The notes below the pieces were generated by a model. It was not told where the DNA came from. It searched no databases and was given only the letters and a program-made list of their open reading frames with translations. A program made the translations under genes and the position numbers. A stretch of 64,000 bases of DNA from a virus, in the IMG/VR virus record IMGVR_UViG_3300045988_125846, positions 91,523-155,522 of that record, one strand, 5' to 3'. Of the stretch, positions 16,223 to 56,408 are shown piece by piece (the first letter of the stretch is position 1; each line of letters begins with the position of its first letter).

Positions 16223-16243
16223 ATTGGAGAAAAAGGAGAAAAT

Positions 16244-16453: not shown

Positions 16454-16460
16454 AGAGTAG

Positions 16461-17663: not shown

Positions 17664-17948
17664 ATGACAAAGAACGAGGTATTAAAGGCAGTAGTAAATA
17701 AAGTTGAGGGAGCTTCACAGAAGGATATCGCAGTTATTCTTGATGCTTTTGCTGATGTAATCACAGAGACATTAACAGCAAACCACGCAGAATCAGTTGC
17801 AGTTGGAAAACTTGGAAAGTTTAAGGTCAAGACAGTTCCAGAGCGTAGAGGAAAAATTATGATGGGCAATCGCAAAGGTGAGGAGTATGTAACTCCACAG
17901 CATGATGAGATTTGCTTTAAGATGTCAAAGTCTGCAAAACAGCTCTAA
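17664..17948 (+). CDS. HU family DNA-binding protein
   Basis: MTKNEVLKAVVNKVEGASQKDIAVILDAFADVITETL...GKFKVKTVPERRG... is a typical HU signature. Confidence 0.85.
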   Translation: MTKNEVLKAVVNKVEGASQKDIAVILDAFADVITETLTANHAESVAVGKLGKFKVKTVPERRGKIMMGNRKGEEYVTPQHDEICFKMSKSAKQL

Positions 17949-17969
17949 TTCTAAGGTGGTGAAAATATA

Positions 17970-18644: not shown

Positions 18645-18651
18645 ATATTTG

Positions 18652-18683
18652 GAGTGTGCGGTGTATGCTGCACACTCTTTTTT
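18652..18683 (+). terminator. intrinsic terminator
   Basis: GAGTGTGC/GCACACTC stem followed by TTTTTT. Confidence 0.75.
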
Positions 18684-18687
18684 GTAT

Positions 18688-18771
18688 GGGTAATTAAACA
18701 ACTACGGAGATTGGCGAAACTGTAAATTTCGTGGCTTTTGCATCGAGTGGGTTCGACTCCCTCATTACCCA
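18688..18771 (+). tRNA. tRNA-Tyr (GUA), long variable arm
   Basis: Acceptor GGGTAAT/ATTACCC, anticodon arm CGAAA-CTGTAAA-TTTCG, long variable arm, T arm GTGGG-TTCGACT-CCCTC (one mismatch). Confidence 0.7.
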
Positions 18772-18936
18772 CTTTTGATGTTTCTGTGAATGGAAACAGG
18801 GAATAGATATATGTGCTCATGATTAGTGTCATAGCTGATTGTGGGATTTATGATGAATATATAAAAATGCGACAAGAAGCGGTTAGTTAATGATACTACT
18901 GCTTCTTTTTTGTTATATGAAAGGAAGTGAGATTTA

Positions 18937-19971: not shown

Positions 19972-20227
19972 ACAATCCCGATGAAACTTTTGTCTAACAT
20001 TATTTTTCCACTATCAGCCATAGAAATGTTCGTGCTTCTCTGCGTTAATGAGAACCTTAATTGTCGGATGAGAGACAATAAACCTTATCAACTGGTCTTT
20101 GCTCCGAAGACTGAAAATATGTGGAGAATAATCAATAAGCATGAATGGATTGCGAAAGTTTTCTAATTTAAAACTGCATGTGTACAGTGCAATATCAGCT
20201 AGTTAGTGCTTTATGCTGATTATACTT

Positions 20228-20299
20228 GGCTCTATAGTATAAAGGTAATTATATCCGACTGTCTATCAGAAGATTTGGGTTCGATTCCCAATAGAGTCG
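20228..20299 (+). tRNA. tRNA-Asp (GUC)
   Basis: Acceptor GGCTCTA/TAGAGTC, T arm TTGGG-TTCGATT-CCCAA, anticodon loop CTGTCTA. The anticodon stem has one C.A mismatch. Confidence 0.65.
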
Positions 20300-20301
20300 C
20301 T

Positions 20302-20375
20302 GTGTTAGTAGCTTAGTAGGTTAAAGCGTCAGATTGTGGTTCTGAATATCGTGGGTTCAAATCCCACCTAACACC
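20302..20375 (+). tRNA. tRNA-His (GUG)
   Basis: Acceptor GTGTTAG/CTAACAC, D arm GCTT..AAGC, anticodon arm TCAGA-TTGTGGT-TCTGA, T arm GTGGG-TTCAAAT-CCCAC. Confidence 0.85.
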
Positions 20376-20424
20376 TAATGATTAAAAGGAAAACGAAAAA
20401 ATAAAAGAAAGGAGTGTACATACA

Positions 20425-20718
20425 ATGGCAAGTAGATTATCTATTGAAAATGATAGATTAAAAGTCGGTCAAGTAAAACGAGTAACATCGAATAATGGAA
20501 ATAAAATTGATTCTATTACTCTTCTGCTTAATGAATCTGTGGAAGTTTTATTTGCACCAAATGGAAATACATTGGAATTTACGGTATCAAATCCAAATAT
20601 TGATATGAGCAATTTGGACTGTACTATTGATAAAGAGACTTTAAGGGACTTAGTAATCAGTTTCAAAGATGCTTATAATCAGATAATTTCAAACGAAAGT
20701 GAGGGGACAAATTCATGA
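20425..20718 (+). CDS. hypothetical protein (97 aa)
   Basis: RBS AAAGGAG upstream; overlaps the next gene (ATGA). Confidence 0.5.
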   Translation: MASRLSIENDRLKVGQVKRVTSNNGNKIDSITLLLNESVEVLFAPNGNTLEFTVSNPNIDMSNLDCTIDKETLRDLVISFKDAYNQIISNESEGTNS

Positions 20719-21188
20719 AATTAGATCAGAAATTTAATGTAGAAAATGACATCGCAAGTGTAGATATTACTGTTACAAGTCTTGGCACTGCTGATTTGAC
20801 AAGTGAGCAGGAAAAAGAATTACTTGCAAATTACAATAAGTATATCGAGTATAGTAAAATACAGTTCAAGGGAAATATCAAGCTTAATAATGGTGTTCCA
20901 GAAGTAACAACAGATCCAAAAGACGATTCTACTATTGTTGAATTGGAGATTACGGATGTAACAAATGAGAGAAAACTTGTCAATGAAGATTTAGCATTTC
21001 ATTTTGAAAGAGATGTAACAAAATATCCTGATACAGTATTAAATACTGTTCTTGATAAGAAGGAACTGTATGCACAGGCTCAGTGTGTATTATTTGCTAC
21101 AAAAGTTAAGGAAGCTGTTACTGAGAAGTTAGCTGAAATTCGTGCGTTGAATAATACTTTCGAAGGAACTACAGAATATACTCTGTAA
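20715..21188 (+). CDS. hypothetical protein (157 aa)
   Basis: Translationally coupled to the previous ORF. Confidence 0.5.
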   Translation: MKLDQKFNVENDIASVDITVTSLGTADLTSEQEKELLANYNKYIEYSKIQFKGNIKLNNGVPEVTTDPKDDSTIVELEITDVTNERKLVNEDLAFHFERDVTKYPDTVLNTVLDKKELYAQAQCVLFATKVKEAVTEKLAEIRALNNTFEGTTEYTL

Positions 21189-21222
21189 AAAATAATGGGT
21201 GGTACTCTTCCACCCTAAATAT

Positions 21223-21293
21223 GGGGCATTAGTCAAAAGGTAAGACAATGGATTTTCATTCCATGAGTATCGGTTCGAGTCCGTTATGCCCTA
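21223..21293 (+). tRNA. tRNA-Glu (UUC)
   Basis: Acceptor GGGGCAT/ATGCCCT, anticodon arm ATGGA-TTTTCAT-TCCAT, T loop TTCGAGT. Confidence 0.75.
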
Positions 21294-21484
21294 TTTTTTA
21301 TGCGGTAAGCCTGATGTGAAAGCTTATCTTTTGGATGCATACGAAATTTAGTGTGTAAGTTCAACACTTACTACCGCCCTATGCCCTTTGCGGTCTTCGG
21401 ACTGGTACTGTTGTAACAATAGGATACGTCCTATGCAGTTTAGATGAAAGCTCGCCATTCGAGGATGGAATGAGAAAGGCAATA

Positions 21485-22153
21485 TCATTTTGGAATTTTA
21501 TCAAATATCAATTTTCTTAACTTGAGTTGATATTTATCATAATGAGATTCCCAATCAAATTCTTTTGTATTATCTAAGATATCTTGTTTGAGATTTTTGA
21601 GTTGTTGTTTATCTGTTTTATGCTTCATGATAATCGGTAATTCGTTAATCTCGTTCTCATAAAATAAAATGGTTGCAATAATACAATTCTTATTGGCAAA
21701 CAACGCAACTAATTCTTGTTTTGTACCCAATACAATTTCAGCCATACCTACTACTCTATTCGTAGTCATAGCTTTACGAAGAAGTTCATATTCGATTTCT
21801 GACTCCATTTCAGGAATTAAATAATATGATTTATCTATGAGTAGGTCTGATATTTCTTTTGATTTACAGAAATATTTTATTGAAAGTGTTCTATCTTTGT
21901 TTGATGTAATTGATTCTATATCATATTGTTCCAAAATAACATACTTATCTTCTGCATATTTATATCCTTTTACAATATCTTCATTGTGGATTTCTTTATT
22001 ACAAGATGGACAAAATTTGATATAACGCACTCTTTCTTTGGAGTCTTTGCAGAGTTGATTAAGTTCTATAGAACTGTTGTGTGATGTTTTTAACATTTTT
22101 ACGGGAATATATAAATCTTTGAATTGAATTGCAGTTTTATATGAAGCGTTCAT
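21485..22153 (-). CDS. ku: Ku-like DNA end-binding protein
   Basis: The N-terminus (YKTAIQFKDLYIPVKMLKTS...IELNQLCKDSKERVRYIKFCPSCNKEI..EDIVKGYKY..DKYVIL) parallels bacterial Ku (AISFGLVNIPVKLY...RIRYKRVC..CGKEV..EDIVKGYEY). Confidence 0.8.
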   Translation of the reverse strand: MNASYKTAIQFKDLYIPVKMLKTSHNSSIELNQLCKDSKERVRYIKFCPSCNKEIHNEDIVKGYKYAEDKYVILEQYDIESITSNKDRTLSIKYFCKSKEISDLLIDKSYYLIPEMESEIEYELLRKAMTTNRVVGMAEIVLGTKQELVALFANKNCIIATILFYENEINELPIIMKHKTDKQQLKNLKQDILDNTKEFDWESHYDKYQLKLRKLIFDKIPK

Positions 22154-22211
22154 GATAGTTTCTCCTTAGATACTTTTGGTTTAGTATATGGAGAAATTTG
22201 AAAAATATTAT

Positions 22212-22285
22212 CTGGATATAGGACAATTTGGTAGTCCGCTAGTTTTGGGAACTAGACGTTGTAGGTTCGAGTCCTACTATCCAGA
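22212..22285 (+). tRNA. tRNA-Pro (UGG)
   Basis: Acceptor CTGGATA/TATCCAG, D arm GGAC..GTCC, anticodon arm CTAGT-TTTGGGA-ACTAG, T arm GTAGG-TTCGAGT-CCTAC. Confidence 0.85.
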
Positions 22286-22378
22286 CTACTGCTCTATACA
22301 GTTATAACCGGTTTGGCGACTGATTGGTAAATATTGGAAGAAAGAGTCATTTCCTTTGGAGTGGCACTTTTATTATAT

Positions 22379-22451
22379 ACACCTTTAGCTTAATTGGTAG
22401 AGCAACGATCTCCAAAATCGTCAGGTCTATGTTCGAATCGTAGAAGGTGTG
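22379..22451 (+). tRNA. tRNA-Trp (CCA)
   Basis: Acceptor ACACCTT/AAGGTGT, anticodon arm ACGAT-CTCCAAA-ATCGT, T arm CTATG-TTCGAAT-CGTAG. Confidence 0.85.
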
Positions 22452-42251: not shown

Positions 42252-43981
42252 ATGGCAAGTTCAGATATTATCAAGATTGGTTTTGATTACAGATCCAGTC
42301 TTGCACAATTTGAAAAAGATACAAATGGTGTATTTGACGGAATTAGTTCTAAGGCTGGTAAACAGAAAATTACAATTCAGTTAGATGCAAAAGATGATAA
42401 GGTAATTGATAAAATTAAGGAATTACAGAAACTTAAATTAGATAAATTCACATTCGAGTTTGGTAATTCTGGATTAAAAGAACAGTTACAAACATTTGAC
42501 AAATTAGAGAATAAGATAAATGAGATTATTAATTTATCAAAAGGAATTGGAAACTCTTCTGCTCCTATTGTTGATGTTAATAAATCGTCAAAGGAAATTG
42601 ATAAACTAGAGAATAAAATCTCAGAATTAAATAAGAAATATGACGAATTACAAAAGAAATCTGCTACTGGCGGTATTTCTGGTAAAGAAGTTAATCTTGT
42701 TGACAATGATGAATTTAAGAAATTATCACAAGAAGTATCTGAATTAAAAGATCAGTTTGATGATTTAAAAACTCATATGAGTTTACTTGACGATTATACT
42801 GTTCCTACTGATAGATTCTTTGAACTTCAAACGCAAGTTGAGGCTACATCTGTCAAGGTTTCTAATTTAGTTGATGAAATGACCAGATTATCCAATGTTC
42901 AGAAAAATATTGGGGTTGAAACGAATATTTCATCTACTTCTACAGAATCTGTTACCAATTCCATCAAAGAAGAGAATAATGTATTAGAACAGAACACTCA
43001 GAAAGTTAAGGAAAATACACAGGCAAAAAAACAGAATGCAAATGTAAATCTTAATAAGTATGATAAACGGTTAGATTCATATAACGGCAAAATTGACAAA
43101 TATAAAACAACTATTGACAGATTTAATGATGGTGGTTGGACAAGTAGTACATATTTAGAAAATGTACAGGCTGTCAAGAATGCTGTTAAAGAGTATGAAA
43201 CTCTGCTTAATGAATTAAAGGGTAAAGATGCTAGTTTGGTGACGAGTGATGATATCAACCGATTAGATAACTATGAAAAGAAAATCAAAGATACTATCGC
43301 TACTGTTACCAATATGTCGGCTTCTGAGAAGGGATATAACTTTGTTTCAGGTCAGAAAGAATTAGACAAGATTCATAAGCTTCTCAATGAAAATAGCAAG
43401 ATGTCTTCTGAGGCAAAAGCTAAGATTAAAGCTTACTATGCGGAAATTGAAAGTGGTAATCCTAGCATGAGTCTTGACAAGATTCATGGTGAAATCTTAA
43501 AGATTTATAATGCCGAAGTCGAAGCTGGTCGTGCTGGCAGAACATTGTTTGACACTTTAAAGAATAGCGGATTCCATCAAATTGCTGCACAGATGGCAGG
43601 AATGGTTGGTGTTTATGATGTTATTAATGTAATCAAGCAAGCTGCGTCTACTGTGACTGAGTTGAATACACAGATTACAGAACTTGCGAAAGTATCTGAA
43701 CAGTCATCAAAACAGATTTATGCCGACTTTGACAGTTATGCAGATATTGCAAAAGAAGTCAGAGGTACAATTTCTGATACTATTGCTGCCACTGCGGATT
43801 GGTCTAAAAATGGATATAGTATTCCAGACGCTAAACAATTAGCAGAAATCTCACAGCTTTATAAAAATGTTGGTGATGGAATTGACATTGATACAGCTAA
43901 CGAGTCACTTATCTCAACCTTAAAAGGTTTTCAGCTTGAAGCAGATCAAGCAGAACACATTGTAGACGTATTTAATGAGGT
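42252..43981 (+). CDS. tail tape-measure protein, exon 1
   Basis: Coiled-coil N-terminus, then the TMP core ...ADWSKNGYSIPDAKQLAEISQLYKNVGDGI...AEHIVDVFNEV. The frame decays after 43981. Confidence 0.8.
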
Positions 43982-44129
43982 AGACTTACTTGCCTCCTAT
44001 TACAGTAATGTAATAGCTTTATGCATTTACATGCATATTGACAGTAACTATATAGGTTAAAGTCCTGAGAAGGATAAGACCTAGGAAAGATTGCAATATT
44101 ATTTTTCATATATGGGGATATATGAATGA

Positions 44130-44300
44130 ATGGAAAAAATTAAAATTAAAAATAAACGATTAGCAAAGTATCTATATTCTCTTGGATTTGATCGAGAATG
44201 TGGATTTGACAAAAATGAATATTGGTTATTTTCGAAATCAAGTGAATTAGATGAGGCACTTGATTTTTATTTTTATATGAGAAAGAAAAACAGAGAATAA
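44130..44300 (+). CDS. 56-aa intron-internal small ORF
   Basis: MEKIKIKNKRLAKYLYSLGFDRE...; below the track cutoff; function unknown. Confidence 0.35.
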   Translation: MEKIKIKNKRLAKYLYSLGFDRECGFDKNEYWLFSKSSELDEALDFYFYMRKKNRE

Positions 44301-44322
44301 CTAATAATAAGGAGATGTTATT

Positions 44323-45519
44323 ATGACAAAAGAAGATTATATAAAATTAGACAATGATACAAAAATAATGTGTAATGATTGTGGTAAGATTTTACATAAA
44401 GAATACTTTTCGTGCAAAAATATTTTTAAAAATCTAACCGGAAGATGTTGTGTATGTGATTGGATAAAGAGACATAATGGTGTTCCGCTTATAGAAGGAT
44501 TTACTCAAGATCAAATACATAAAACACTTGAATTTATTCTTTATAATAAATCTGCTTATATAAACGATTTGGCAAAATATTTAAATATTGATTTAGATGA
44601 TTCAATGGAGCTTTTTCGTAGATTAAAAATTGGTAATAGAAAAATGAGAATCTTGTCTAATTGTGATTATTGTGGAAGACAAATAGAAGATTTTTTAAGT
44701 ACAAACAAAATTAATTCACATAATTATTGTTCAAGAGAATGTTATTGGAAACATAAGAAAATTATAATAGGAAAAGGTAAAAATAATAAACAATACAATA
44801 GAATAAAAGTATTATGTACGAATTGTGGAAAAGAAATGGAAATTATTCCATATGATTATAACAAAGTAAATTCAAAAGGTGACAATCACAACTTTTGCTC
44901 ACAAGAATGTTATTGGGAATTTCGTAAGAGATATTATGTAGGCGAAAATGGAGCAATGTATAACTATAAATTTTCAGATGAACAAAAAGAACATTCAAGA
45001 ACAAAATTATTAGAACGGTTAAAAAATGATAATAGACTAGAAACAGGAATTCAATTAAAAGTCAATTCTATGCTGGATAACTTAAATATTAAATATGAAA
45101 GAGAAAAAGTGTTTGATTATTATGCTGTTGATAATTATATTCCTACATATAATGGTATCATTGAAGTAATGGGTGATTATTGGCACGTTTCTCCATTACG
45201 TTATAATGAAGAAAAATATTTTATGAATGAGATGCAACAAAAACAACTACATAGAGATAAAATAAAATATTCTTATATTATAAATCATTATAAAATTCCT
45301 ATTTTATATTTGTGGGAAACAGATATAAACAATAATCCAAATCTTTGTATTAAATTAATTGATAAATATATACAAAATGGTAAAATTCTTGAAAATTATC
45401 ATTCTTTCAATTGGCAATTAGAAAACGACACTTTATCTATTAAGGAAGATATTATTATCCCTTATCAAAATATATCTGTTAATGAATACAGGCATTTAAT
45501 TAAAAAGAAAGTAGGATAA
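44323..45519 (+). CDS. intron-encoded homing endonuclease: Zn fingers + Vsr-like (PD-(D/E)xK, EDxHD-type) nuclease
   Basis: Several CxxC...CxxxC(Y)W modules. The C-terminus IEVMGDYWH...LHRDKIK...IPILYLWETD parallels Vsr FVHGCFWH...RD...VLIVWE. Confidence 0.65.
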   Translation: MTKEDYIKLDNDTKIMCNDCGKILHKEYFSCKNIFKNLTGRCCVCDWIKRHNGVPLIEGFTQDQIHKTLEFILYNKSAYINDLAKYLNIDLDDSMELFRRLKIGNRKMRILSNCDYCGRQIEDFLSTNKINSHNYCSRECYWKHKKIIIGKGKNNKQYNRIKVLCTNCGKEMEIIPYDYNKVNSKGDNHNFCSQECYWEFRKRYYVGENGAMYNYKFSDEQKEHSRTKLLERLKNDNRLETGIQLKVNSMLDNLNIKYEREKVFDYYAVDNYIPTYNGIIEVMGDYWHVSPLRYNEEKYFMNEMQQKQLHRDKIKYSYIINHYKIPILYLWETDINNNPNLCIKLIDKYIQNGKILENYHSFNWQLENDTLSIKEDIIIPYQNISVNEYRHLIKKKVG

Positions 45520-45748
45520 TCCCCAATCCATAAAATAATATTGCAAAATCCTTAACGACTGCGGTGGAGTATATAGTAATATATATTCCGAAGTTACTCT
45601 CCTACTCTACTATTTTTAGAAGAAAGAGGATGAATATACAGTCTGACCTCACGAAATAATCTAACAGCGAAACGTGAGACATAGCTAGAAATGACTATGC
45701 GCCATAGAAATATGGTCAGTAGGCTTACAACCGAAAGTAACAGATGTG

Positions 45749-46483
45749 AAGTAATAACGAAGCTATATCAAGCGGAGGCATAGGCGAAGCCCTTCAGCGT
45801 TCTGCCGCTTCATTTAACGCTGCTTCCACCTCACTTGAAAAGTCAGTTTCGCTCGTAACGGCAACGAACTCAGTTTTGCAGAACCCAGAAAAGGTTGGAA
45901 ATATGTGGCGTACAGTTTCAGCCAGATTGCGTGGATCAGAAACAGAGCTTAAAGAGATGGGCGAAGACACAGATGGTCTTGTAACTTCTACATCAAAACT
46001 ACAAGCACTTGTAAAAGGAATTACAGGTTTTGATATTATGAAGGACAAAGATACTTATAAGGATATATATGATATTGTCCTTGGTATTGGAGAAAAATGG
46101 AAGGATCTTAGTGACATTGATCGTGCTTCGCTTTTAGAGGCTTTGGCAGGTAAGCAGCAAAGTAATGCCCTAGCTGCCGCCCTTAGTAATATTGATATCC
46201 TTAAGAAGAGCTACGAAGAAGCAACACATGCAGAAGGTTCAGCTCGTGAGGAAAATGAAGAATATAGTAAATCAATTCGGGCTTCAATTGACTTAGCTCA
46301 GGCAAAGTTGGAACAGCTTGCGAATGACACTTTAAATTCGAATTTCCTTAAAGGTGCAATTGACGCAGGTGGAAAATTAATTGAAGTTTTAGATGGTATT
46401 GTAAAAAGTGGTAATGCAATACCTACTTTATTAGCTGCTATTGGAGCAGGTCTTAGTTTTAAAAACATCGGTAAATGTTACGT
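45749..46483 (+). CDS. tail tape-measure protein, exon 2
   Basis: Frame open from 45750: SNNEAISSGGIGEALQRSAASFNAA...VLQNPEKVGNMWRTVSARLRG... (conserved TMP core), ending in the hydrophobic AIPTLLAAIGAGLSFKNIGKCYV. Confidence 0.75.
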
Positions 46484-47341
46484 GAGTGCGTAATTTTTCA
46501 AATTATTGTTATTGTTTTGAATATGCCCACCTAACTCAAGACAACAATCAAGAGTTGGGAAGATTAGGTCTAGTCAACCTATAGATGTTTCAAAATAAAT
46601 CGTAATTGTGAGTTGCTATCTCACAGTGCTGGGAAGAAATAAAATATACCGTATATATAAAATAACACACTACAACGTGGCTAGAAATGGCGAACGTGAA
46701 TGTATTCCGAAAGGATGTTGGTAACAACAAGAAAAGTCAAATCCAGAAATGGAGGTTATTTGGGTATATGGGGAAACCCTAAGTATCATGTCCTTAATGG
46801 ACTAAATCGGCAATCAGCAACGGATTCTATTGTAATAGAGAATATTATAGTGGAGGTGTTCAGAGAGTCTAAACGATTTTGAGTTATTACAAAATAGCTT
46901 GTAAAAGGGACTCCATACGTAGTTATCGCACTACTCTCGTGACTGAGATATAAAAGCGTAAAAGAGTGTTGCTACTCTAACCCTATTAAATAGCACATTG
47001 TTAATAGGACAACAGCAGGGTTCGTGTGTACCGTAAGTTTGAAGAAACACACAAAACCAAGAATTCTTGATTTCAATCGAGTAAAATAGAGAATAATAAA
47101 ATAGCACCACAAGTTGCTGTTCTTGTAGTGCTAATGTCTTTGAGATTATTGAAAATCAAAGACTCCCTATATTGTAACATTGGGGTAGTACATAAAAATA
47201 AAATTGGTTGTATGTACAAATTTATTGTATCAAACATCAATGATTATTTCAACAGTAAAAAGAGAATAAATAAAATGAGGACTGTCGTGATGACCAGCCC
47301 TTGTATATAAAGTGATATAATATTCCCTCACTAGATATCAA

Positions 47342-47419
47342 TTAAAACTTAAGTACAGCAACAAAAACCGTAAGTGCAATTACAAGCCTTGTTAAACTGT
47401 CTATGTTGATATTCAACAT
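47342..47419 (-). CDS. 25-aa hydrophobic peptide (type I toxin-like)
   Basis: GGAGGTG lies 5 nt before the ATG. MLNINIDSLTRLVIALTVFVAVLKF. Confidence 0.35.
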   Translation of the reverse strand: MLNINIDSLTRLVIALTVFVAVLKF

Positions 47420-47742
47420 ATTCACACCTCCTTTTAATATGCATGTAATAAACACACATATCCAAATAGATATGTTTATACATATACTAGAAGAGTGAAC
47501 TTAAGACCTAGTAAATAGCGACCGTAACTGATATCTAGTTCCCATTTCGCACTGTTTTCAGTGCATCCACCTCAAAGCTTATTGTACCACTTTACCATAA
47601 TTTTACAATCCAGAACGTAAGTTTGTCGAATAATGCAGAAAGAAAAATATTCAAATTTTGAATAATTCTATTTACAAAATTTTACAATTATGCTATTGTG
47701 AAAATATAAAAATTTTTGCATTTTTTGAAGGAGGCAAACTGG

Positions 47743-48753
47743 ATGGAAGATATTAAAACAAGTCCGAAAAGTTTAAGATCGTTGGTTGGTGAAATCAATA
47801 AGGGAAAATATAATTTTGACTTACCAATTCAACGTAGAGCTGGTATTTGGAAACCAAAAGAGAAGTCATTGTTTATTGATACTTTGTTAAGAAACTACCC
47901 TATTTACCCTGCACTTGTGAATAAACACAGTGACACAAAAGAGATTGATGTAGTTGATTTTAAGCAACGTTTTACTACAATCGCAGCCTTTGCTAATGAC
48001 GAATTTAAATTATCAAAGAATTTAAAACCATTAACAATTGATGGGACTGAATACGAAATCGCAGGAAAGAAATTTTCTAAGCTTGACGAAGCTGTTCAGT
48101 CAAGATTTAATGACAGAGATATTTCTATTATAACAATGACAGATGCAACCGAAGAAGAAATTGTTGATATTTTTGAAAGAATAAATATGGGACACCAACT
48201 TTCAAACGGACAGAAAAGAAGCACTATTGAAAGCAATGAAGTTAGAAAAATTATTTACTCTATTGCTGATCATCCATTCTTTGAAAAAGTTTTATCTCCT
48301 GCTCAGTTTAAAAAGAACCTTGACAGAGATATTGTTATTCAATGTTTAATGCTTACAGAAAAGACAGATAAAAACAATTTTACTTCATTTAGAGATGTAG
48401 ATATGAATAAATTTATTATGTATTATAATGATAAGATTGCAGATCCAAATGAAAAACAATTTGCAGAAAAGAAAATTGAAAATCTGCGCAAAGCATTAGA
48501 TAAGTTGAATGAAGAACTTCCAGAAGATGTAAAAATAAAAGCAAGTACAATTCCAATGTGCATTTATGGAATGTACCGTATGGTTAGAGATTCTAAATCT
48601 ACTTCTAAATATATGGAATGGTTGAACAAATTTTTAGCATCATATGATACGAACTTGGATTATTTGCAATACTGCTCTAATGGAACATCTAATAGCGATA
48701 TGGTAAATGGACGATTGCAGTTCTTTAAAGATGCTATAAAGGAAATTGGATAA
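47743..48753 (+). CDS. DUF262 (ParB-like NTPase/nuclease superfamily, GmrSD N-terminal type) protein
   Basis: Start moved to the ATG after AGGAGG. FDLPIQRRAGIWKPKEKSLFIDTLLRNYPIYP and VVDFKQRFTTI (DGQQR-like) motifs. No DUF1524/HNH half. Confidence 0.6.
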   Translation: MEDIKTSPKSLRSLVGEINKGKYNFDLPIQRRAGIWKPKEKSLFIDTLLRNYPIYPALVNKHSDTKEIDVVDFKQRFTTIAAFANDEFKLSKNLKPLTIDGTEYEIAGKKFSKLDEAVQSRFNDRDISIITMTDATEEEIVDIFERINMGHQLSNGQKRSTIESNEVRKIIYSIADHPFFEKVLSPAQFKKNLDRDIVIQCLMLTEKTDKNNFTSFRDVDMNKFIMYYNDKIADPNEKQFAEKKIENLRKALDKLNEELPEDVKIKASTIPMCIYGMYRMVRDSKSTSKYMEWLNKFLASYDTNLDYLQYCSNGTSNSDMVNGRLQFFKDAIKEIG

Positions 48754-48760
48754 AAGATAA

Positions 48761-48788
48761 AGAGTAGTCGATTGACTACTCTTTTAAT
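48761..48788. terminator. bidirectional terminator between convergent genes
   Basis: 9-bp stem AGAGTAGTC/GACTACTCT with loop GATT; A/T runs on both sides. Confidence 0.65.
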
Positions 48789-48808
48789 ATGTATGTGTTT
48801 TATTAAAT

Positions 48809-49381
48809 TTATGGGTTACAAACACTACAAGGTTCATATCCTTCTGCTATAGCATCGTTTATATCAATTGCAATTTTACTATTCCATAAATATCTACATC
48901 CATCTTTATGATATTTTGAGCCATTTTCGGTGATATAAACTGTATATGTATTATTTTCTTCAGAATAATCATTATTATAATAATCACTGTCATAATAAGC
49001 ATCTTCATATGATTTATAAGATTCTATTTGTTTTTTAAGATCAGAAATTGTATCATCTTTTTCGTCAAGAAGCTTATTTAGATCATCTATTGTAGATTGT
49101 TTGTCTTTTAAATTAGACAGTTGCTTATCCTTTTCGTTTAATTTTATTTCTAATCCAATTCTATTGTTTGTTAATTCTTTTATTCTGGACAAATATTCAT
49201 TGTTTTTTGATTTTAAATTCGATTTTTCTTTTTGTAACTTTGAATTTTTTGATTTAAGTTCAATTATTTGATTATTTTCTGAATTTAATTCGTATAAAGA
49301 GTAAATATCTGTACCAGTTAATATAGTGATAATTAAAAGTAGAAAAATTACAAGCTTCTTTTCTTTTGTGAATTTTTTCAT
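48809..49381 (-). CDS. membrane-anchored coiled-coil protein with a C-terminal Cys/His metal-binding motif
   Basis: N-terminal TM segment, long Lys/Glu/Asn coiled coil, C-terminus GSKYHKDGCRYL...GYEPCSVCNP. Confidence 0.55.
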   Translation of the reverse strand: MKKFTKEKKLVIFLLLIITILTGTDIYSLYELNSENNQIIELKSKNSKLQKEKSNLKSKNNEYLSRIKELTNNRIGLEIKLNEKDKQLSNLKDKQSTIDDLNKLLDEKDDTISDLKKQIESYKSYEDAYYDSDYYNNDYSEENNTYTVYITENGSKYHKDGCRYLWNSKIAIDINDAIAEGYEPCSVCNP

Positions 49382-49532
49382 AATTAAAACTTCCTTATAA
49401 CTGTTGAAATAAATATATCTAAAAAGAGAATATATAAATATGAGGATAACATAATGTCATCCTCATACCATTGTGCACCGTGTTACACTAAACACTCAAA
49501 TTTTCTAGCAGAAATTAAAATAATTATGTAAG

Positions 49533-49706
49533 TTATTTGCGTTTAATTTTGAACCAGAGATGTTTGCCAGCATGTAGTTCAAAATACTTTACACTTCTTA
49601 CAACATTGCAAGCTAATAATATCGCAATTATTGCAAGTAAGGTAAACGCAAAGGCAATTGCGATCGTGCAAAAACACGAAAGCAAAATTGTAAAAATCTG
49701 TTCCAT
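49533..49706 (-). CDS. 57-aa membrane protein
   Basis: GGGAGGTGAG RBS. One long hydrophobic stretch then a basic tail. Preferred over track ORFs 49537-49731(+) and 49579-49887(-). Confidence 0.5.
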   Translation of the reverse strand: MEQIFTILLSCFCTIAIAFAFTLLAIIAILLACNVVRSVKYFELHAGKHLWFKIKRK

Positions 49707-49915
49707 ATCTCACCTCCCTTCTGATTATTAAGTAATCGTCTGGGGAAGTTATATGGGACAGAACGTCCAGAATTGTATAAACTTCTGATGTGAATACACC
49801 TTCGCTTTCTATGGTTCTAAGCCATTGGTGTATGGTTAATGAGTTACATCTGTATATATACAGGTTAAATTTATTGTAGCACAGCATTACATATTATGAT
49901 AGTCTGAACATATGT

Positions 49916-50386
49916 TTACCATTTTGCTCCACAATTTTTACAGTGCATTGTGTTTCTTACATCTGAACTGAACAATCCAAATATTACACCGCCAAATATT
50001 TTCTTACCAGTTGAAATCTTTTCTACATTAAGTGAGCCACAGGTAGGGCATTTTGGCATGTTCTTACCACCATTGCGAAAAGCTGTTTTAACATCCGCAC
50101 CTTGACGTATTGCATCACCGATAGCCATATCTCGTTCATATTCGGCAGATTTTTGTGCTTTGATTCTGTCTCGATTATTAAAGAGATATTCATCAAATTC
50201 TGGTGAAGATTTTATGCACTCTTCTATGAATTGGTCTTTTTTGTTTTCATTCAAATTATTTTTATAAATTTTTCCATTATATAGTAATAGATATTCTTCA
50301 GGAACTTCATATGTTATAGAGTTGCAAATGTCACATTTTTTTGAATCTATAATTGTTCTTCCACATTTTTTACAATACATTAACAT
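49916..50386 (-). CDS. double zinc-ribbon protein (156 aa)
   Basis: Start moved to MLMYCKKCG... after GGAGGTG. CKKCG..CDIC at the N-terminus, CPTCGS...CKNCG at the C-terminus, with a hydrophobic segment between. Confidence 0.55.
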   Translation of the reverse strand: MLMYCKKCGRTIIDSKKCDICNSITYEVPEEYLLLYNGKIYKNNLNENKKDQFIEECIKSSPEFDEYLFNNRDRIKAQKSAEYERDMAIGDAIRQGADVKTAFRNGGKNMPKCPTCGSLNVEKISTGKKIFGGVIFGLFSSDVRNTMHCKNCGAKW

Positions 50387-50467
50387 GATGACACACCTCC
50401 AATTTATGAAAATTGTATCACATATAATAAAATTCAACAAGTCCTCAAACAACTTGTAATAAAATAG

Positions 50468-53400
50468 TATGATATTCAAAACATTTGACAGTGATAAAGA
50501 TACATTTTCATCGAAATTTGGAATATTGGGGAAATCATTTGAAGATATTGGGAATAGATTTAAAAAAGTTTCTGATGAATTAATTGTGACAAATGATTAT
50601 ACAATATCTAATATTGCAAATGCGTGGAGAAATTCTTCCGTTAAGAAAGACTTAAGTGATAAATTTATTATTACTAAATCTGATATACAAGATAAATTAA
50701 AAGATCTTTCTGTTTATGAAAAAAATCCGCAAGGTATTTTAGATAATCTATTGGAACAAAAAGAATTAGTTGATTCTAATCAGTCTAGTTGGCAAAAATA
50801 CTTTGAAGGATTATCAGAAGGTGAAAAATGGCAAACAAAATTCGTTCAAGAAAATGACTTGACCAAAGTATCTCTTGATGATGTAAAAAATGCTCAGAAT
50901 GCAGCAAAACAGTCTGCTATTGCTTACAATAATGGATTAGAGCAAATGACCATTAGTGCTAAAACTGCTAACATTGCTTTAGAAGGATTAAAGATGGCAG
51001 CAAATATGATTGTTGGTATGCTTGTCGCAGAAGGCATCAAACTGGCTATCACAGCAATAGATAACTGGATTCATCGTGTAGAAAAAGCAAATGACGCAAT
51101 GGATGAAGCTGTAAGTAAGTATGATTCTGCTAAAACAGCATTAAAAGATACAACCTCTCAATTAGAAGAACAAAATAAACGTATTGATGAACTCAATAAA
51201 AAAGATAAACTCACATACGTTGAACAGGAAGAATTAGACAAATTAAAAGAAGCTACTCGACAGTTAGAACTTCAAAAAAATATTGAAGAAAAAGAGAAGG
51301 CTAATTCTGCACGAGAGGCGGCAGATAAAACAGTAACTGCATTTAATAAACAATATGGGAAAGGTGATATTGATAAAAATGCGGTTGATACTCAACTTGC
51401 TCAGTCAAAAGCAACTGGTGTATTTCAGGAAGCTCGAAACAGCGATGATATTGTTGGCAATTTAGCATCTTTTGAATATTATACGGAGCAGATGGAAAAG
51501 ACACAAAAGAGATATAACAAAGCCTTGAAATCTGGTTCTAAGGATGATATTAAGTATTATGAAGAGAATTTACAAGATTATATTGATACTGTAGATGAAT
51601 ATACAACATCATTAAATAATAATATTGAAGATCTCACAAAGAAGAAGAACAATCTTCAAGATGCCTATGATAATGCTGTCAAAAAGAAGTCTAATGGAGA
51701 ATCTTTGTCTTCCGATGAAAAAAATACAATTTCAAAATATCAAGAAATTGCAGACATAATTAAGTTAATCTACTCTTACACTGACGAAGCAGGATGGAAT
51801 AATTCTCAGATTTCAGAAATTTTCAATACAAACGGAATTGAAAAATCAAAAGAAGATCTTCAACAATTGGCACAAGAAGGTAAGCTTACAGAGGAAGAAT
51901 TACAAAAATATCCTAACCTCATAAATGCGATTAATAGCGCAGAGTTTTTAGGAGAAAAAGATTCTAATCTTAAAGTTTTCTGTAATGATTTGAACGCTGG
52001 TGTAGATGCCATTGAAGATACGGGTAATGCTGCTGATTCTGCTACCCCATCTATCGCTTCTTTTGACGAAGCATGGCTCAATCTCAAAAATACAGACAAC
52101 TCAGATTTAAAAGGTGCGGCAGATGACCTTCTTGACCTTGCAAATGCAGGACAATTAACAGGAAACGCACTTGAAAGTTTGGCTGGTGGTCAGCAGTTGA
52201 TGAATGAAACAGGTTTATCAGCAGAGGCACTTGCACAAAAAATTAACGGTCTTGTAAACGCTTCTACACAACTCTCTTCTATGTCTGCACAGATTTCTAA
52301 GATGTCTGATATGCTTGCTGACAAGAAGAATGGTACAGTTGCATCCGCTTCTGATTTAGCAGGATTTGATGTTTCAGTCCGTGGTCTTGAATCTTGGGAT
52401 AAGTTTGAAGAGGTAATGGGTAGTTCTGAATCTAGCATGGATCAGTGCCAGAAAGCTGCCAATGCTCTTGCTACTGAATGGGTAAACGATGGCAATTTCT
52501 TGGCAAACCTTACTGATGAAAACAAACAGTATTATATCACTCAGCTTGAAGATATGGGTGTTAAAAATGCCGAGCAAATTGTAACAGAGGCTTTGACAAA
52601 AAAGGAAGAAGAACTTAGATTTGAAAAACTTCTTTCTGCCGATGCATCCACAGATTTGCAAAATGCCACAGTTGCTGATATTCTTAAACTTCAAAATCTT
52701 GGTGATATTACAGAACAGGAAAAAGCAAAACTTGCAGCTTTCACATTAGAAAAACAGTATTGTAACAAAAACACTATTGTAACTGATGCAGATTGTCAAA
52801 ATATTTACACTCTTGCTAAAATGGCTGGCGCAGGTACAGAAGCTTTAAATAAACTTGCAGCATTAAAACAAAGACTATCAGACAATCCAATTATGTCTAA
52901 TGAAATGCGCAACAATATTAACAGTGCAATTCAAGGCATTGTAAATGGTGTAACAACTTCTGCTGGTGCAAAGTTAGATATACCACAAGTGAAAGTAAAT
53001 TCTTCTGGTTCATCAAGTTATAAATCTCCGTCATCAAAAAAATCAAAATCTAAATCAAAAACAAAGTCTGACGCTGCCGAAGTATTTGATTTTATTGAGA
53101 TTAAACTTAACAATCTTACAGACAAGGCTTCAAAAGCAAAGGATAAAATTGATGATCTTCTCACATTTGGTCAGAAGAAAAATCAAACCAAAAAAGCTAT
53201 TGAAGCTACTACCAAAGCTATTACTGCACAGGAAAAAGCATACAAGAAATACATGGCATATGCCAATAAAGCTGCGAAAACACAGAACAGTAAAAAGACA
53301 ACTTCTTCATCCTCCTCATCTTCTTCAGGTGGAAACGCTGTATATGATACTGCTACAGATTATCTTGGGCTGAAATATGTTTGGGGTGGAGCAAGTCTTA

Positions 53401-56400
53401 CGAAAGGTGCTGACTGTTCTGGATTTACACAGCAGATTTATAAGAAGTTTGGTGTAAGTTTACCACATCATGCGGCTGACCAGGCTAAGATGGGAACAAA
53501 AATCACATCGAAGAAAAATTTGCAAGCTGGTGACTTAGTATTCTTTGGTAGTAAGAGCAACATCACACATGTAGGTATTTATGGTGGAGACGATAAGTTT
53601 ATTGAATCCCCTCATACTGGTGCATCTGTAAGAGTTTCCAAGCTTTCATCTCGTAAGGATTTTGTATCTGGTTCACGTTTTAGTGGAATAAGTGGTTCTA
53701 CAAAGACAAGCGGAAAGAATGTAAAAAAGGTCAAAGGTGTATCATCCAAGACACTTGAACATTATAAGAGACTTATCCGTGAAGGAACACTTGGTTCAGA
53801 TGGTATTGCTTCTATTAAGAATGAAAACCTGAAAAATGCATTAAAGGATTATCAGACCTATTATGAGAAAGCAAAAGCTTGTAAGGAACAAGTTGCCAGT
53901 CTTACGGATCAATTAAAGGATTTATATGAGACTTTAGCGAACAACCCGGTTGACAATGCTTCTGATAAGATTGAAAAACTTGGAACTAAGATGGATATTC
54001 TGAATGCCAAGGTAGGTAATCTTACATTTAATCCAACAAAGAAAATCAGTACATCTGACATTGATGATTTGTATAAACAGATTATTAAGAACTACGATAG
54101 TCAGTTGTCAGCTTCAAAAACTGCTTATACTGGTGCAACAAAGAGTTATAAATCCAATAAGAGTTCTCTTACAAAGTCTCTTAAAAAAACAAAAGCTAAA
54201 AACATTGGTCTTACTCAAAAGGAATTTAATTCTATTAAGAGTAATTTAAAATCCAATAAGTCAATTTCGTATAATCTTATTAACAAGATTGAAAATGACA
54301 GTCTTAGGGAAAAGTGCATAGCACATAATGAATATCTTCTTGCAAAGAATACCGCAACTGATAATTATAATCAGGCTAAAGAGGATCACACTTCTAATGT
54401 GCGTCAGGTTAGAAAAGACCGCTTTGATGATGTACAGGAACGGTACGACAATAAAGCTGGGCTGATTGAGCAGAGAAAGAACGCTGTCTCCAATTCTCTT
54501 AATATAGCTGAAGCAAAAGGTCAGTTGATTGGTGAGGCTTACTATACACGTCAGGCAAATGCTGTCAAATCTGACATGAAGCTTAAACAAGAAGAAGCTG
54601 GAAAACTTGCAAAGAAATTATCTACAATTAAGTTTGGCAGTAATGAATGGTATGAAGCGCAAGAAGCTTTAAATGGTGTCTATGAAGCCATTCAACAGGA
54701 CGAACAGGAACTTGCAGAGTTTCAAAAATCTATCAATGAGTTGAAGTTTGACCGTTTTGACGAGTTACTTAATAAGCTTGGAGACATCACAGACGAGACG
54801 GATTTCTTAATTGATATGCTTGATTCTGACAATCTGTTTGACAGTGATACAGGAATGATTACGCAGGATGGCATTACTGCTATGGGATTGACTGCACAGA
54901 ATTATGATACATATCTTGCGGAGGCTCAAAAGTACAAAGATGCTATTGCTGATCTGAATGAGATGTATAATAGTGGAAAAATTGGTCTTACTGATTATAA
55001 CTCTAAACTTCGTGAATATCAGCAAGGTCAACGTGATTCTATTAAGTCCGCAAATGAAGCGAAGAAGTCGTTAGTTGCTTATGTAAAGCAAGGATTAGAT
55101 GCGCAGAATGATGCTTTGGAAGAAGCAATTTCGAAGAAAAAGGAATTGTTAGAAACAGAGAAGGACTTAAAGGATTTTCAGGATAAGATTGCTGATCAAA
55201 ACAAGAACATTGCTAATTTGCGCAAGCAGATTGCGGCACTGGAAGGTGATTCATCAGAATCGAATCGTAAAAGGCTTCAGCAATTGAAATCCGATTTGAA
55301 AGATGCCGAAAAAGAACAGTCAGATACTTTGTACGATCGTTCCGTATCCGACCAAGAAAAAGCTCTCGATGATATGCTCACCAAGAGTAAAGAGTCTGCC
55401 GAAAGTTATTTAAAGGATACCAATAAGGTATTCTCTGATGCTCTCACATATGTTAATGCTAACTCTTCACAGGTTGCATCAAACATTGAGAAAATTGCAA
55501 AGGATACTGGATATGATGTATCTACTTATATTGTGAATGCTTGGAAAGACGGTGGAAACGCTGTAGGCGATTATGCAAGCACATTATCGTCTAACGTATC
55601 TGGTATTACAGCACAACTTAGTTTGATTGCATCTTCATGGCAATCTATTTGTGATGCTGCTGACAGAGCCGCTGAAGCAAGTGCCAAGTATGCAGAGACA
55701 AAAGTTACAGACACACAAGGCATTGGATCGCCAAACGATTCAGGAACTTCAAGCGGAAACGGTTCTGTTTCTTCTGGAAGTAATGATGATGACAAGCAAC
55801 AGGAATTGAATAAACTCAGAAAGAAAGCAAATGATATTACAGAATGGATATCTAAGCATTCAGTATCGGCAACACACAAGAAATCGTATTACGGTGCTCT
55901 TAATCAGTACCTTTATGAGAAACAGCATAAACAAGTTCTAAGTAAGGCTAATGAAGTTGCTCTTGCGAAGAAACTTGGTGTATCTGTAAAAAGTGATTTG
56001 TCTGGTAAAAACGATAGAGAGAAAATTACTTCAGCTCTCAAGAAACTTATAAAAGACGCTTCGTTCTCAACTGGCGGTGTGATTAAGGATCTTGTTAAAC
56101 TTTCTGGTGAAGATGGTATTAGTTTCTTACAACGTGGCGAAGCTGTACTTTCTAAGGAACAGACACAAGCATTGTTGAATTTTAAGCCTGTTATTCCACA
56201 GATTAACTCTATTATTGGCAATCTGAAGAACATTCCAGAGAAAGTTTCATCACAATCTCCTACTTATCAAATCGACAACAGAACTATTGTTGAAGGTGTC
56301 GCTACAGACCAGATTGTTAAACAAATGGAAGGTGTTGCTCAGAAACAGGCTGAAAATGTTGTAAGAAAGATCAACCAAGCAACTTATGCCAAAGGTGTAA

Positions 56401-56408
56401 GAAAATAA
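50468..56408 (+). CDS. tail tape-measure protein, exon 3 (with an embedded NlpC/P60 peptidase domain)
   Basis: No RBS before the ATG at 50469. Long coiled-coil protein. YLGLKYVWGGASLTKGADCSGF...GDLVFF...HVGIYGG at about 53.35-53.68 kb. Confidence 0.75.

Follow-up and report, generated by a model that had tools for sequence, protein, structure and literature searches.

A group I intron with a multi-gene, mostly antisense cargo in the tape-measure gene of a gut phage

Group I introns of phages are known as compact selfish elements that carry one endonuclease gene. The classical examples, among them those of T4 td, nrdB and nrdD, of SPO1 and of Twort, are 0.25–1.8 kb long, contain no open reading frame (ORF) or one or two on the same strand, including an endonuclease gene (LAGLIDADG, GIY-YIG, HNH and others), and have a P10 helix of only a few pairs, as is usual for group I introns. 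The ORFs are usually held in loops; in the T4 nrdD (sunY) intron, the ORF lies downstream of the ribozyme core and the remote 3′ splice site needs 3′-terminal pairings. The gene for the tail tape-measure protein (TMP) is a known group I target, with an annotated Intron_gpI in the TMP gene of phage phiCD211. Composite elements also exist in the form of IStrons, group I intron/IS200-605-607 chimeras of Clostridia and Bacillus such as CdISt1 and CboIStron (PMC10690162). Here we analyse the window, a stretch of 64,000 nt from the IMG/VR virus record IMGVR_UViG_3300045988_125846, in which the TMP gene is interrupted by a classical group I intron (intron 1) and, further downstream, by a much larger element (intron 2) that carries five cargo ORFs. 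We consider intron 2 (46473–50471) to be a genuine group I intron that is spliced to make one TMP, and put the probability of this reading at roughly 0.8.

The TMP is encoded in three coding blocks of the window (Table 1). The first two are covered by an uninterrupted relative of 824 aa (P0054), whose residues 1–577 match 42252–43982 at 99.7% identity in tblastn, a boundary then refined to U43981, and whose residues 578–824 match 45750–46490 at 100%. As the initial annotation had noted, the middle block runs into a stop at TAA 46491–93 after ...FKNIGKCYVSA, 6 codons past the 5′ splice site assigned below, and the downstream frame of 1,979 codons, open from 50463, is preceded by an in-frame TAA at 50460–62 and offers an ATG at 50469 without a Shine-Dalgarno sequence. 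When exons 1, 2 and 3 are joined, an uninterrupted ORF of 2,796 codons results, reading ...LSFKNIG-IFKTFDSD..., and the TMP of Clostridium phage phiCD211 aligns continuously over the break with 24% identity (E = 6e-14). The gene is uninterrupted at this site in three of 40 related IMG/VR loci (L032, L033 and L045; relatives are numbered with the prefix L throughout), and removal of intron 2 leaves a continuous gene homologous to uninterrupted TMPs, as with other group I introns. More than 100 gut-metagenome proteins of 771–863 aa match exon 2 with 100% identity and have their stop at the same position, and exon-2 proteins identical to that of the window are found on hundreds of human-gut contigs. 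Because these relatives share the stop, which is followed by a 2–7 kb gene island and then by an ORF of more than 1,900 aa, the split of the TMP is conserved in the lineage, and the content of the island variable.

The borders of the element follow from comparison of related loci. In every lineage, the C-terminal tails of the upstream ORF diverge right after one Gly codon (KCYVSA*, IDTLVAY*, EWNYISK..., RDKMYSL...), and in L030 a stop codon stands immediately after this GGT codon. Over 8.6 kb upstream, the interrupted locus L031 has 99.5% identity to its uninterrupted sister L032, and their comparison delimits the insert in L031: it is preceded by ...CAUGGU, runs from GAAAUUG to CAUUACAG and is followed by GCAGUACAA, and L032 reads GGUCAUGGUGCAGUAAAA at the position of the insert. 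The insert thus bounded ends in ...ACAG and exon 3 begins with GCAGUA; the base at −1 is U and the intron closes with G, according to the group I rule. Located six nt into the same insert is UUGUACUGC, which is exactly complementary to bases 1–9 of exon 3 (GCAGUACAA), and directly after it follows GCC, which pairs with the final GGU of exon 2.

In the window, the last nucleotide of exon 2, U46472, is paired with guide nucleotide G46525 (GGU/GCC), as at the cleavage site of group I introns, within a P1 that is short and mismatched. The terminal G (omega-G) is G50471, and the introns end in G in all 19 loci with assigned junctions. As exon 3 starts at 50472, the ATG at 50469–71 constitutes the last three bases of the intron and not a start codon. 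Correspondingly placed triplets read ACG, which is not a start codon, in L004, L005, L018, L027 and L038; no start codon lies near the junction in L029, L031 and L013; and a Shine-Dalgarno sequence is absent at the start of exon 3 in 19 of 19 loci. Gene callers choose starts 30–200 codons downstream in relatives and thereby lose conserved residues, and the residues directly after the junction are conserved although the start codon of exon 3 is ACG or absent in many relatives. The lack of a usable exon 3 start in relatives is a strong argument for joining of the exons at the RNA level. The predicted ligated junction joins AAAAACAUCGGU to AUAUUCAAAACA (also written as AAAAACAUCGGU joined to AUAUUCAAAACAUUU) and yields the protein sequence NIG-IFK. 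Where P1 consists of GGU/GCC only, an automatic splice-site finder gave spurious 5′ sites, and those loci were set by homology.

These borders differ from those first proposed. The initial annotation had taken TTACGT/GCGTAA (46478–93) for P1, G50467 for the terminal nucleotide and 46483/46484 and 50467/50468 for the two boundaries, giving a junction peptide KCYV-MIFK in place of NIG-IFK. The pairing exists, and it covaries in L002 (AUACGU/GCGUAU), but it forms a hairpin inside the P1 loop and is deleted in L029, the ribozyme of which is 71% identical to that of the window. A junction of 46483 to 50468 would keep the frame and likewise have U at −1 and a terminal G; it was rejected, as no P10 adjoins its P1, L029 lacks the hairpin, and in all types the conserved exon sequence extends no further than GGU. 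The 5′ splice site therefore moves 11 nt upstream, to 46472/46473, and the 3′ splice site to 50471/50472, so that the downstream ATG belongs to the intron. A second junction that had been offered, 46487/50472, was right in its 3′ boundary and in assigning GAATAT to the guide, and wrong in its 5′ boundary. One group of relatives (L002, L012 and L026; 10564–10620 and 15100–15160 in L002) apparently has its 5′ splice site after C, between GGC and AUU. In these, the exon C stands opposite a guide A (GUCGG-C/A-CCGAC), a C-A pair replacing the U-G wobble; alternatively, the splice site lies one codon downstream, after AUU.

A single guide aligns both exons. Its P10 segment is continued directly on the 3′ side by GCC 46525–27, which pairs with GGU 46470–72, the arrangement of P10 and P1 in group I introns. 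The 12-mer ATATTCAAAACA occurs exactly twice in the 64-kb window when both strands are considered, at the start of exon 3 and, as its complement, in the guide, with ~0.12 chance matches expected. Among the 40 related contigs, at least eight sequence-unrelated intron types occupy the same site, and the guide of each fits the exons of its own phage (Table 1), P1 covarying in at least six types besides that of the window; all types are in frame and end in G, with U at −1 (C-A in L002). When the same ribozyme is found with a different exon 3, the first ~12 exon nucleotides stay pairable (AUAUUCAGAACA, AUAUUCACAACA, AUGUUCAAAACC) and the later codons are unrelated. These ~12 nt, encoding I-F-K/R/T-T, are conserved at the nucleotide level, and the codons beyond them diverge completely.

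The ribozyme module comprises 590 nt (46473–~47062), as delimited by homology among relatives, and beyond it the element is a mosaic of shuffled modules. We aligned the window with seven relatives (71–99% identity) and tested a hand-completed structure consisting of the RNAalifold helices together with P1, P3 and P4. For its 143 pairs, 97.3% of the cells are paired, compared to 35–46% when the partners are slid by 1–3 columns, and the 25 compensatory pairs contrast with 5.7 ± 1.8 in shuffles, none of 500 of which reaches 25. In P1, all six pairs are kept in all eight sequences. The structure contains the catalytic core of group I ribozymes, with P3–P8, the P3/P7 pseudoknot, the P4–P6 domain and the Q, R and S elements, and lacks P7.1 and P7.2. 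The six pairs of P3 are 100% paired, with three compensatory changes (AAGCCA/UGGCUU in L029). P4 is invariant in 8 of 8 sequences and resembles the RF00028 consensus UGCGGGAAA. P7, with two compensatory pairs, is formed by GAGUCU 46865–70 and GGACUC 46908–13; it covaries as GAGUC/GACUC, GAGUA/UACUC and GAGCA/UGCUC and, across types, reads GACUA/UAGUC in L035 and GACUC/GAGUC in L044. P2 differs from that of L029 (CUUACCU/AGGUAGG) at four compensatory positions when compared by eye, some of which are shifted by the automatic alignment. An R-like element, GTTCAGAGAGTCTAAACG at 46858–75, had been recognized at the outset; the core of the R element is GUUCAGAGAGUC, and the RF00028 consensus has the same order, GACUA-AA-P3′. 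All three elements, Q, R and S, agree with the classical group I consensus. Textbook Q, R and S elements are present in L035 (AAUUCGCAGC, GUUCAGAGACUA and UAUAGUCC, respectively). The last peripheral hairpin pairs GUGUGU 47024–29 with ACACAC 47047–52 around a 17-nt loop (ACCGUAAGUUUGAAGAA) and is compensated in L029 (CUAUAU/AUAUGG, by eye). We also considered P8 as AUUUUG/CAAAAU and rejected it: relatives read UUAUUA-AUAG there, and the UGAGUUAU/AUAGCUUG pairing of RNAalifold frees CGAUUU for P3. The region 46.49–47.1 kb is ORF-poor and rich in GAAA-capped hairpins, as initially described; the RNAfold stability over 46.49–47.06 kb corresponds to z = −3.06 relative to shuffles, and ~1.2 kb without convincing ORFs precede the plus-strand cargo gene.

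A search of Rfam with the whole window brought only tRNA above the gathering score and nothing meaningful at E <= 10 in 43800–50800. With the ribozyme alone, the best match to RF00028 is partial (46769–46866, covering P4–P6 and R), with 17.1 bits and E = 0.07. As a control, the TMP intron of phiCD211 scored 41.7 bits, also under the RF00028 gathering score of 50, and intron 1 is likewise missed. The tool works, and the ribozyme family of intron 2 is far from the model.

The remote 3′ splice site may be brought to the core by a second long-range pairing. The loop of the last P9-type hairpin contains GUUUGA, and UCAAAC lies shortly before the 3′ splice site. Both motifs are present in all 12 loci of four ribozyme types, with UCAAAC −25 to −41 nt from the splice site, and neither occurs in any of 7 loci of five other types. 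Some of the latter types have different complements at the same relative positions, ACUUUGUA/UACAAAGU in L013 and L016 and UGUUGGA/UCCAACA in L036 and L042. In a scan for tail-to-head complementarity, AT-rich noise was dominant, and GUUUGA/UCAAAC and a few lineage-specific 7–8-mers ~25 nt before the 3′ splice site stood out. The two strands would probably form a helix that closes the ~3.3 kb of cargo as a loop. The loop with GUUUGA also holds UACCG (47029–33), complementary to CGGUA across the 5′ splice site (46469–73). This pairing, chosen by RNAalifold, would compete with P1; it is expected by chance at ~6%, which is not significant alone, and shows no covariation.

The cargo of intron 2 consists of five ORFs, one on the plus and four on the minus strand, with no match to a known homing-endonuclease family, as the initial annotation had stated. 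Intron length ranges from 2,058 to 7,081 nt among the 19 introns with assigned borders, and their 103 ORFs of 75 aa or more make up 53 families, only two of which are common. The ParB-DUF262 gene is the first plus-strand gene in 13 of the 19 introns, and the zinc-ribbon family (F01) is present in 15 of 19, almost always antisense and adjoining the 3′ splice site. Other cargo genes encode DUF3800, DUF2513, DUF4145 and DUF3825 proteins, two PemK/MazF toxin families, a trypsin-like peptidase, a LytTR response regulator and a Bro-N/ANT antirepressor. Searches of Pfam, PHROGs and PADLOC with the cargo of the window and with representatives of the other cargo families revealed no known homing endonuclease, transposase or TnpB; an endonuclease of the LAGLIDADG, GIY-YIG, HNH, His-Cys or PD-(D/E)xK kind is not recognisable in intron 2. 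No plus-strand terminator is predicted inside intron 2, all three terminator-like hairpins being on the minus strand, among them the hairpin between the convergent genes that had been called bidirectional. A scan for promoters gave 25 matches, compared to 26.9 expected from shuffled sequence. The cargo genes, with their own ribosome-binding sites and minus-strand terminators, would presumably be expressed independently of splicing, like morons.

Two further observations concern the minus strand. The 44-aa ORF is followed by a terminator-like hairpin at 47102–47133, and the pair resembles a type I toxin module. A promoter-like site (TTATCA, 17 nt, TATCAT; 50469–50497) overlaps both the 3′ splice site and the opening codons of exon 3, and could drive the antisense zinc-ribbon operon. 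If it does so, coding, P10 and promoter would all constrain the start of exon 3 at once.

Table 1. Features of the interrupted TMP gene in the window, and guide pairings of other intron types at the site of intron 2
Feature	Position	Strand	Remarks
TMP exon 1	42252–43981	+	577 codons, ends ...VDVFNEV
Intron 1, classical group I	43982–45748	+	DUF5659 ORF 44130–44300 (56 aa); 398-aa Zn-finger/HNH-like ORF 44323–45519
TMP exon 2	45749–46472	+	ends ...AIGAGLSFKNIG, final codon GGU 46470–72
P1	46470–46527	+	exon GGU and intron AAAU (46470–76) with AUAUGCC (46521–27); U46472-G46525 wobble at cleavage site
Intron 2, group I	46473–50471	+	3,999 nt; from P1/P10 geometry, U at −1, G at 3′ end
P1-loop hairpin UUACGU GAGU GCGUAA	46478–46493	+	present in the type of the window
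P10 guide segment UGUUUUGAAUAU	46513–46524	+	exact complement of exon 3 50472–83 (AUAUUCAAAACA)
P2 hairpin CCUAACUC/GAGUUGGG	46530–46559	+	RNAalifold and pair count
P3 5′ strand AAAUCG	46597–46602	+	with CGAUUU 46874–79
Extra hairpin UGUGAG...CUCACA	46607–46625	+	between P3 and P4; atypical for group I
P4 5′ strand UGCUG, then GGAAG (‘P’ element)	46627–46631	+	with CAGCA 46815–19
Large P5 extension	46637–46811	+	several hairpins, two GAAA-capped; several compensatory pairs
Q element AAUCAGCAAC	46812–46821	+	contains P4 3′ strand 46815–19; matches consensus AAUCCGCAGC
P6 stem-loop	46820–46859	+	16 pairs, 3 compensatory
R element GUUCAGAGAGUCUAAACGAUUU	46858–46879	+	J6/7, P7 5′ strand 46865–70, J7/3 (UAAA), P3 3′ strand 46874–79
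P8 hairpin UGAGUUAU/AUAGCUUG	46880–46901	+	strands 46880–87/46894–901; 1 compensatory pair
S element GGGACUCC	46907–46914	+	P7 3′ strand 46908–13
P9 (46919–34) and further 3′ peripheral hairpins	46919–47052	+	compensatory pairs in P9
GUUUGA, candidate 5′ strand of cargo-closing helix	47037–47042	+	in 17-nt loop of last P9-type hairpin
44-aa hydrophobic ORF	47349–47483	−	strong ribosome-binding site (MLNINIDSLTRLVIALTVFVAVLKF...); type I toxin-like; no family match
336-aa ParB-DUF262 protein (GmrSD_N; NsnA-like)	47743–48753	+	Pfam PF03235 6e-15; PADLOC NsnA 1e-34, full length
11-bp hairpin between convergent cargo genes	48759–48784		terminator-like on minus strand only
190-aa membrane-anchored coiled-coil protein	48809–49381	−	weak DivIC and coiled-coil matches only
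57-aa transmembrane ORF	49533–49706	−	no family match
156-aa zinc-ribbon protein	49916–50386	−	last gene before 3′ splice site; weak Zn-ribbon matches only
UCAAAC, candidate 3′ strand of cargo-closing helix	50445–50450	+	21–26 nt before 3′ splice site
Intron 3′ end AGUAUG	50466–50471	+	conserved as AGUA[U/C]G
TMP exon 3	50472–56408	+	1,978 codons and stop; NlpC/P60 domain; P10 = first 12 nt
Type of L011, L027			P1 GUCGGU/GCCGAC; P10 9–12 bp
Type of L035			P1 GUGGGU/GCCCAC
Type of L014, L016			P1 CUGAGU/GCUCAG; P10 CUUGCACA/UGUGCAAG
Type of L013			P1 UUGGGU/GUUCAG; P10 6 bp
Type of L036, L042			P1 AUAGGU/GCUUAU; P10 7 bp
Type of L044			P1 UCUGGAU/GUUCAGA; P10 7 bp
Type of L019			P1 GGU/GCC; P10 19 bp
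Type of L029			P1 GGU/GCC; P10 18 bp, one mismatch

Intron 1 provides a classical counterpart in the same gene. Exon 1 ends in GAGGU, the guide at ~43987–97 reads UUACUU followed by GCCUC, the intron ends in GAUGUG and exon 2 starts with AAGUAA, so that P1 is GAGGU/GCCUC and P10 has 6 bp. It encodes a protein matching PHROG 559 (HNH, E = 8e-6), lies at the same TMP site as the annotated phiCD211 intron, and is absent from the more than 100 relatives with a TMP N-terminal part of 771–863 aa. Intron 2 shares with intron 1 and the other classical phage introns, including Intron_gpI of phiCD211, the ribozyme class, the splice-site rules and a conserved phage gene as host. It differs in that its family spans 2–7 kb, carries 2–10 ORFs on both strands without a recognisable endonuclease, usually has a P10 of 7–19 bp (6 in L013) and likely employs a second long-range pairing.

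IStrons are the closest architectural precedent. Like intron 2, they have a 5′ ribozyme with protein genes after the core and a 3′ splice site kilobases away, they reside in Firmicutes/Clostridia hosts, and their precise splicing restores the interrupted gene, as is predicted for intron 2. The cargo of an IStron, however, is a transposon (tnpA, tnpB, omega-RNA), its ends are the splice sites, and it transposes to many sites, whereas no transposase or TnpB of an IS200/605 or IS607 element was found in intron 2. The family described here has instead a variable, partly antisense cargo drawn from 53 ORF families and occupies one fixed site in one gene. Furthermore, IStron ribozymes belong to subtype IA2 and match Rfam, whereas the ribozyme of intron 2 stays below threshold, is without P7.1/P7.2 and has a P10 of 9–19 bp.

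The cargo itself is reminiscent of the moron and defence hotspots of temperate phages and satellites, in which variable modular genes likewise occupy a fixed position and have their own expression signals. Toxin-like (PemK/MazF), DUF3800, DUF4145, ParB-DUF262 and antirepressor genes are common to both. Known hotspots lie between genes, however, whereas the island of intron 2 lies inside an essential structural reading frame, where it would be tolerated only because splicing removes it. The match of the first cargo protein to NsnA is full-length (ParB-DUF262 plus a DNA-binding domain at the C terminus). NsnA forms the Menshen defence system as a three-gene operon with the ABC ATPase NsnB and the effector NsnC (PMC12065111); the NsnA-like gene of intron 2 is solitary, with no NsnB ATPase or NsnC effector ORF following, and does not make up such a system. 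Literature searches returned no report of accessory-gene islands inside group I introns.

The initial proposal that a group I ribozyme with a multi-gene, mostly antisense cargo interrupts the TMP gene is borne out by the P1/P10 covariation, the covariation of the core, the L031/L032 pair and the start-less relatives. We propose the following course of events. As no plus-strand terminator was found inside the intron, a late transcript would read through the whole of intron 2. The 5′ module (46473–47062) would fold into P1–P9 with the P3/P7 pseudoknot and Q, R and S, and the guide 5′-UGUUUUGAAUAU-GCC-3′ (46513–27) would set the GGU end of exon 2 beside the first 12 nt of exon 3. The remote 3′ splice site would be brought to the core by the long P10, probably with the help of the closing helix; the ~3.3 kb of cargo would lie in the 3′ tail after the P9-type hairpins, and the last ~45 nt would hold the 3′ splice site. 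Guanosine-initiated two-step transesterification is then predicted to excise 3,999 nt and join U46472 to A50472, giving a single TMP of 2,796 aa (...FKNIG-IFKTF...). The cargo genes would probably be expressed on their own, for example in the lysogen. Because the cargo is presumably expressed independently of splicing, the intron may be regarded as a site within an essential gene where a fast-changing island of accessory genes is tolerated.

Several points weigh against this account. The P1 of the window is weak, with three exon pairs followed by C-C and A-C mismatches, and its guide GCCCAC suits GUGGGU, while the exon reads AUCGGU. The core is atypical in its extra hairpin between P3 and P4, which is well supported, 4 of 6 pairs being compensatory (AGCGG/CCGCU in L029). 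RF00028 scores below gathering in the window and in eight other loci, a criterion that is operational and not defining. IMG/VR and the JGI metagenomes yielded neither a spliced transcript nor a cDNA-like contig nor an allele of the window's type without the intron, and a set of 5.8 billion protein clusters held no junction-spanning protein. As to the closing helix, co-occurrence of GUUUGA and UCAAAC, and not nucleotide covariation, speaks for it, a weak support; on the other strand, UCAAAC lies in the 5′ untranslated region of the zinc-ribbon gene, which could equally explain its conservation. Finally, the precursor must cross 4 kb with three or four antisense genes and a strong hairpin, and antisense transcripts could interfere.

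Some of these features might be explained if the same ribozyme acted in trans. A first transcript would then comprise exons 1 and 2, the ribozyme and the plus-strand cargo gene, and a second, which would start within the cargo a short way upstream of UCAAAC, the 3′ tail and exon 3; the two halves would associate via P10 (9–19 bp) and GUUUGA/UCAAAC. Trans-splicing group I introns are described from organelles, for example fern and placozoan mitochondria (PMC10027690). There, too, a 5′ ribozyme part and a distant 3′ part meet by base pairing, but the halves are transcribed separately from distant loci, whereas the parts of intron 2 are 3.4 kb apart on the same strand. The unusual length of P10 (12 bp in the window, 18 in L029, 19 in L019), the second conserved long-range complementarity, the convergent cargo genes, three or four of them antisense, with a strong hairpin in their midst, and a TATAAT hexamer at 50423–28, 17 nt upstream of UCAAAC, would all suit such an arrangement. 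However, no plus-strand terminator is predicted in the intron, promoter-like matches are no commoner than in shuffled sequence, and −10-like hexamers are expected by chance in AT-rich DNA. Moreover, the smallest relative, L031 (2.06 kb), has the same layout over a distance easily spanned in cis. We know of no natural trans-splicing group I intron in bacteria or phages, and a literature search found none. The 5′ ribozyme of an IStron, in turn, splices in cis over ~2 kb of cargo (PMC10690162). Splicing in cis is clearly favoured, and we regard the trans version as improbable.

A slightly poorer candidate still is a ribozyme that has become inactive in the lineage of the window, with an N-terminal TMP part (...KCYVSA) and a C-terminal part starting at ATG 50469 that assemble non-covalently. 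The weak P1 of the window's type, the stop 6 codons past the 5′ splice site, the ATG exactly at the intron end in the window and the absence of an intron-less or spliced version of this type from the collections searched would fit such a loss. It is difficult to reconcile with L004, L005, L018 and L038, which share the ribozyme, the weak P1 and exon 2, yet have ACG in place of the ATG and no other start; nor does a Shine-Dalgarno sequence precede 50469. In addition, the helices of the 590-nt ribozyme are kept by compensatory changes at 71–97% identity, and P10 is kept at the nucleotide level while the exon beyond it diverges. A genuinely split TMP, which the initial annotation had left as an alternative, therefore seems unlikely from these comparisons. 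The idea that no intron is involved, and that a moron island separates two tail genes with the 590-nt RNA as, for example, a regulatory non-coding RNA or 3′ untranslated element, draws on the missing Rfam family at gathering score and on the likeness of the cargo to a typical variable accessory-gene hotspot, but is already contradicted by the comparative data, namely the precise insertion into a continuous ORF in L031/L032, the P1/P10 covariation, the U/G splice-site rule, Q/R/S and the P3/P7 pseudoknot, and no non-tRNA Rfam family reached gathering in the window, so that we give it hardly any weight. Large phage non-coding RNAs such as ROOL and GOLLD have their own Rfam families.

Two other kinds of element were considered and set aside. 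A group II intron was suggested by GUGCG at 46487, which resembles a group II 5′ end, and was rejected, there being no domain V/VI-like sequence before 50467–72 and no Rfam match. A split intein was rejected as well: the Cys lies 5 residues before the stop of the N-terminal TMP part, far too short for an N-intein.

Some observations extend to the TMP gene and the phage as a whole. The N-terminal 50–850 residues of exon 3 (50472–~53000 in the window) are hypervariable among phages with identical exon 2 and ribozyme (L004, L005, L031/L032). L031 and L032, which are near-identical (99.5%) upstream of the intron, share only ~32% protein identity over ~700 aa downstream of it and then 97%. The intron marks a recombination boundary in the TMP, and the hypervariable start of exon 3 could be a co-conversion tract. 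In L043, L046 and L047 (around 8260–8400), the frame of the N-terminal TMP part is broken elsewhere, within the PhageMin_Tail core region, and in L047 an 11-nt stretch of the downstream flank is complementary to the beginning of the next long ORF; TMP genes of this phage group may accordingly contain additional sites of intron insertion. Seven tRNA genes at 13069–22451 of the window (Rfam RF00005, 55–72 bits) are consistent with a large (~130–190 kb) siphophage related to phiCD211/SPbeta-like phages, the neighbours of which have YomU/YomW-type tail genes. Megablast of 42.0–51.5 kb against 50,697 phage records gave no match, and a host search against GTDB genomes gave weak matches only (a Lachnospiraceae MAG, and Diplocloster).

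With good support and in high abundance, the element represents a form of group I intron that had not been recognised before. For annotation, this would mean, if splicing is confirmed, that gene callers split the TMP into a ‘minor tail protein’ and a truncated TMP, with false downstream starts in several relatives, and because Rfam misses the ribozyme, the number of such introns in gut viromes is probably underestimated. The long P10 and the candidate closing helix may be natural means of splicing over many kilobases, which is relevant to RNA circularisation and to the engineering of trans-splicing. Confirmed splicing would also mean that a ribozyme keeps a rapidly changing multi-gene island in an essential structural gene at no cost to the protein. 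A more far-reaching idea, which we offer tentatively and think rather less probable than its opposite, is that the family has evolved into an accessory-gene vehicle and is not a selfish intron with passengers, combining an adapted ribozyme, a new mobility or maintenance module and the exchange of cargo. The long P10 and the cargo-closing helix would then possibly have been acquired to splice over 2–7 kb, even in trans, and the ParB-DUF262 and antisense zinc-ribbon genes may replace the homing endonuclease. If this were true, gut phages would exchange defence, toxin and regulator genes along with the intron and the hypervariable TMP segment next to it.

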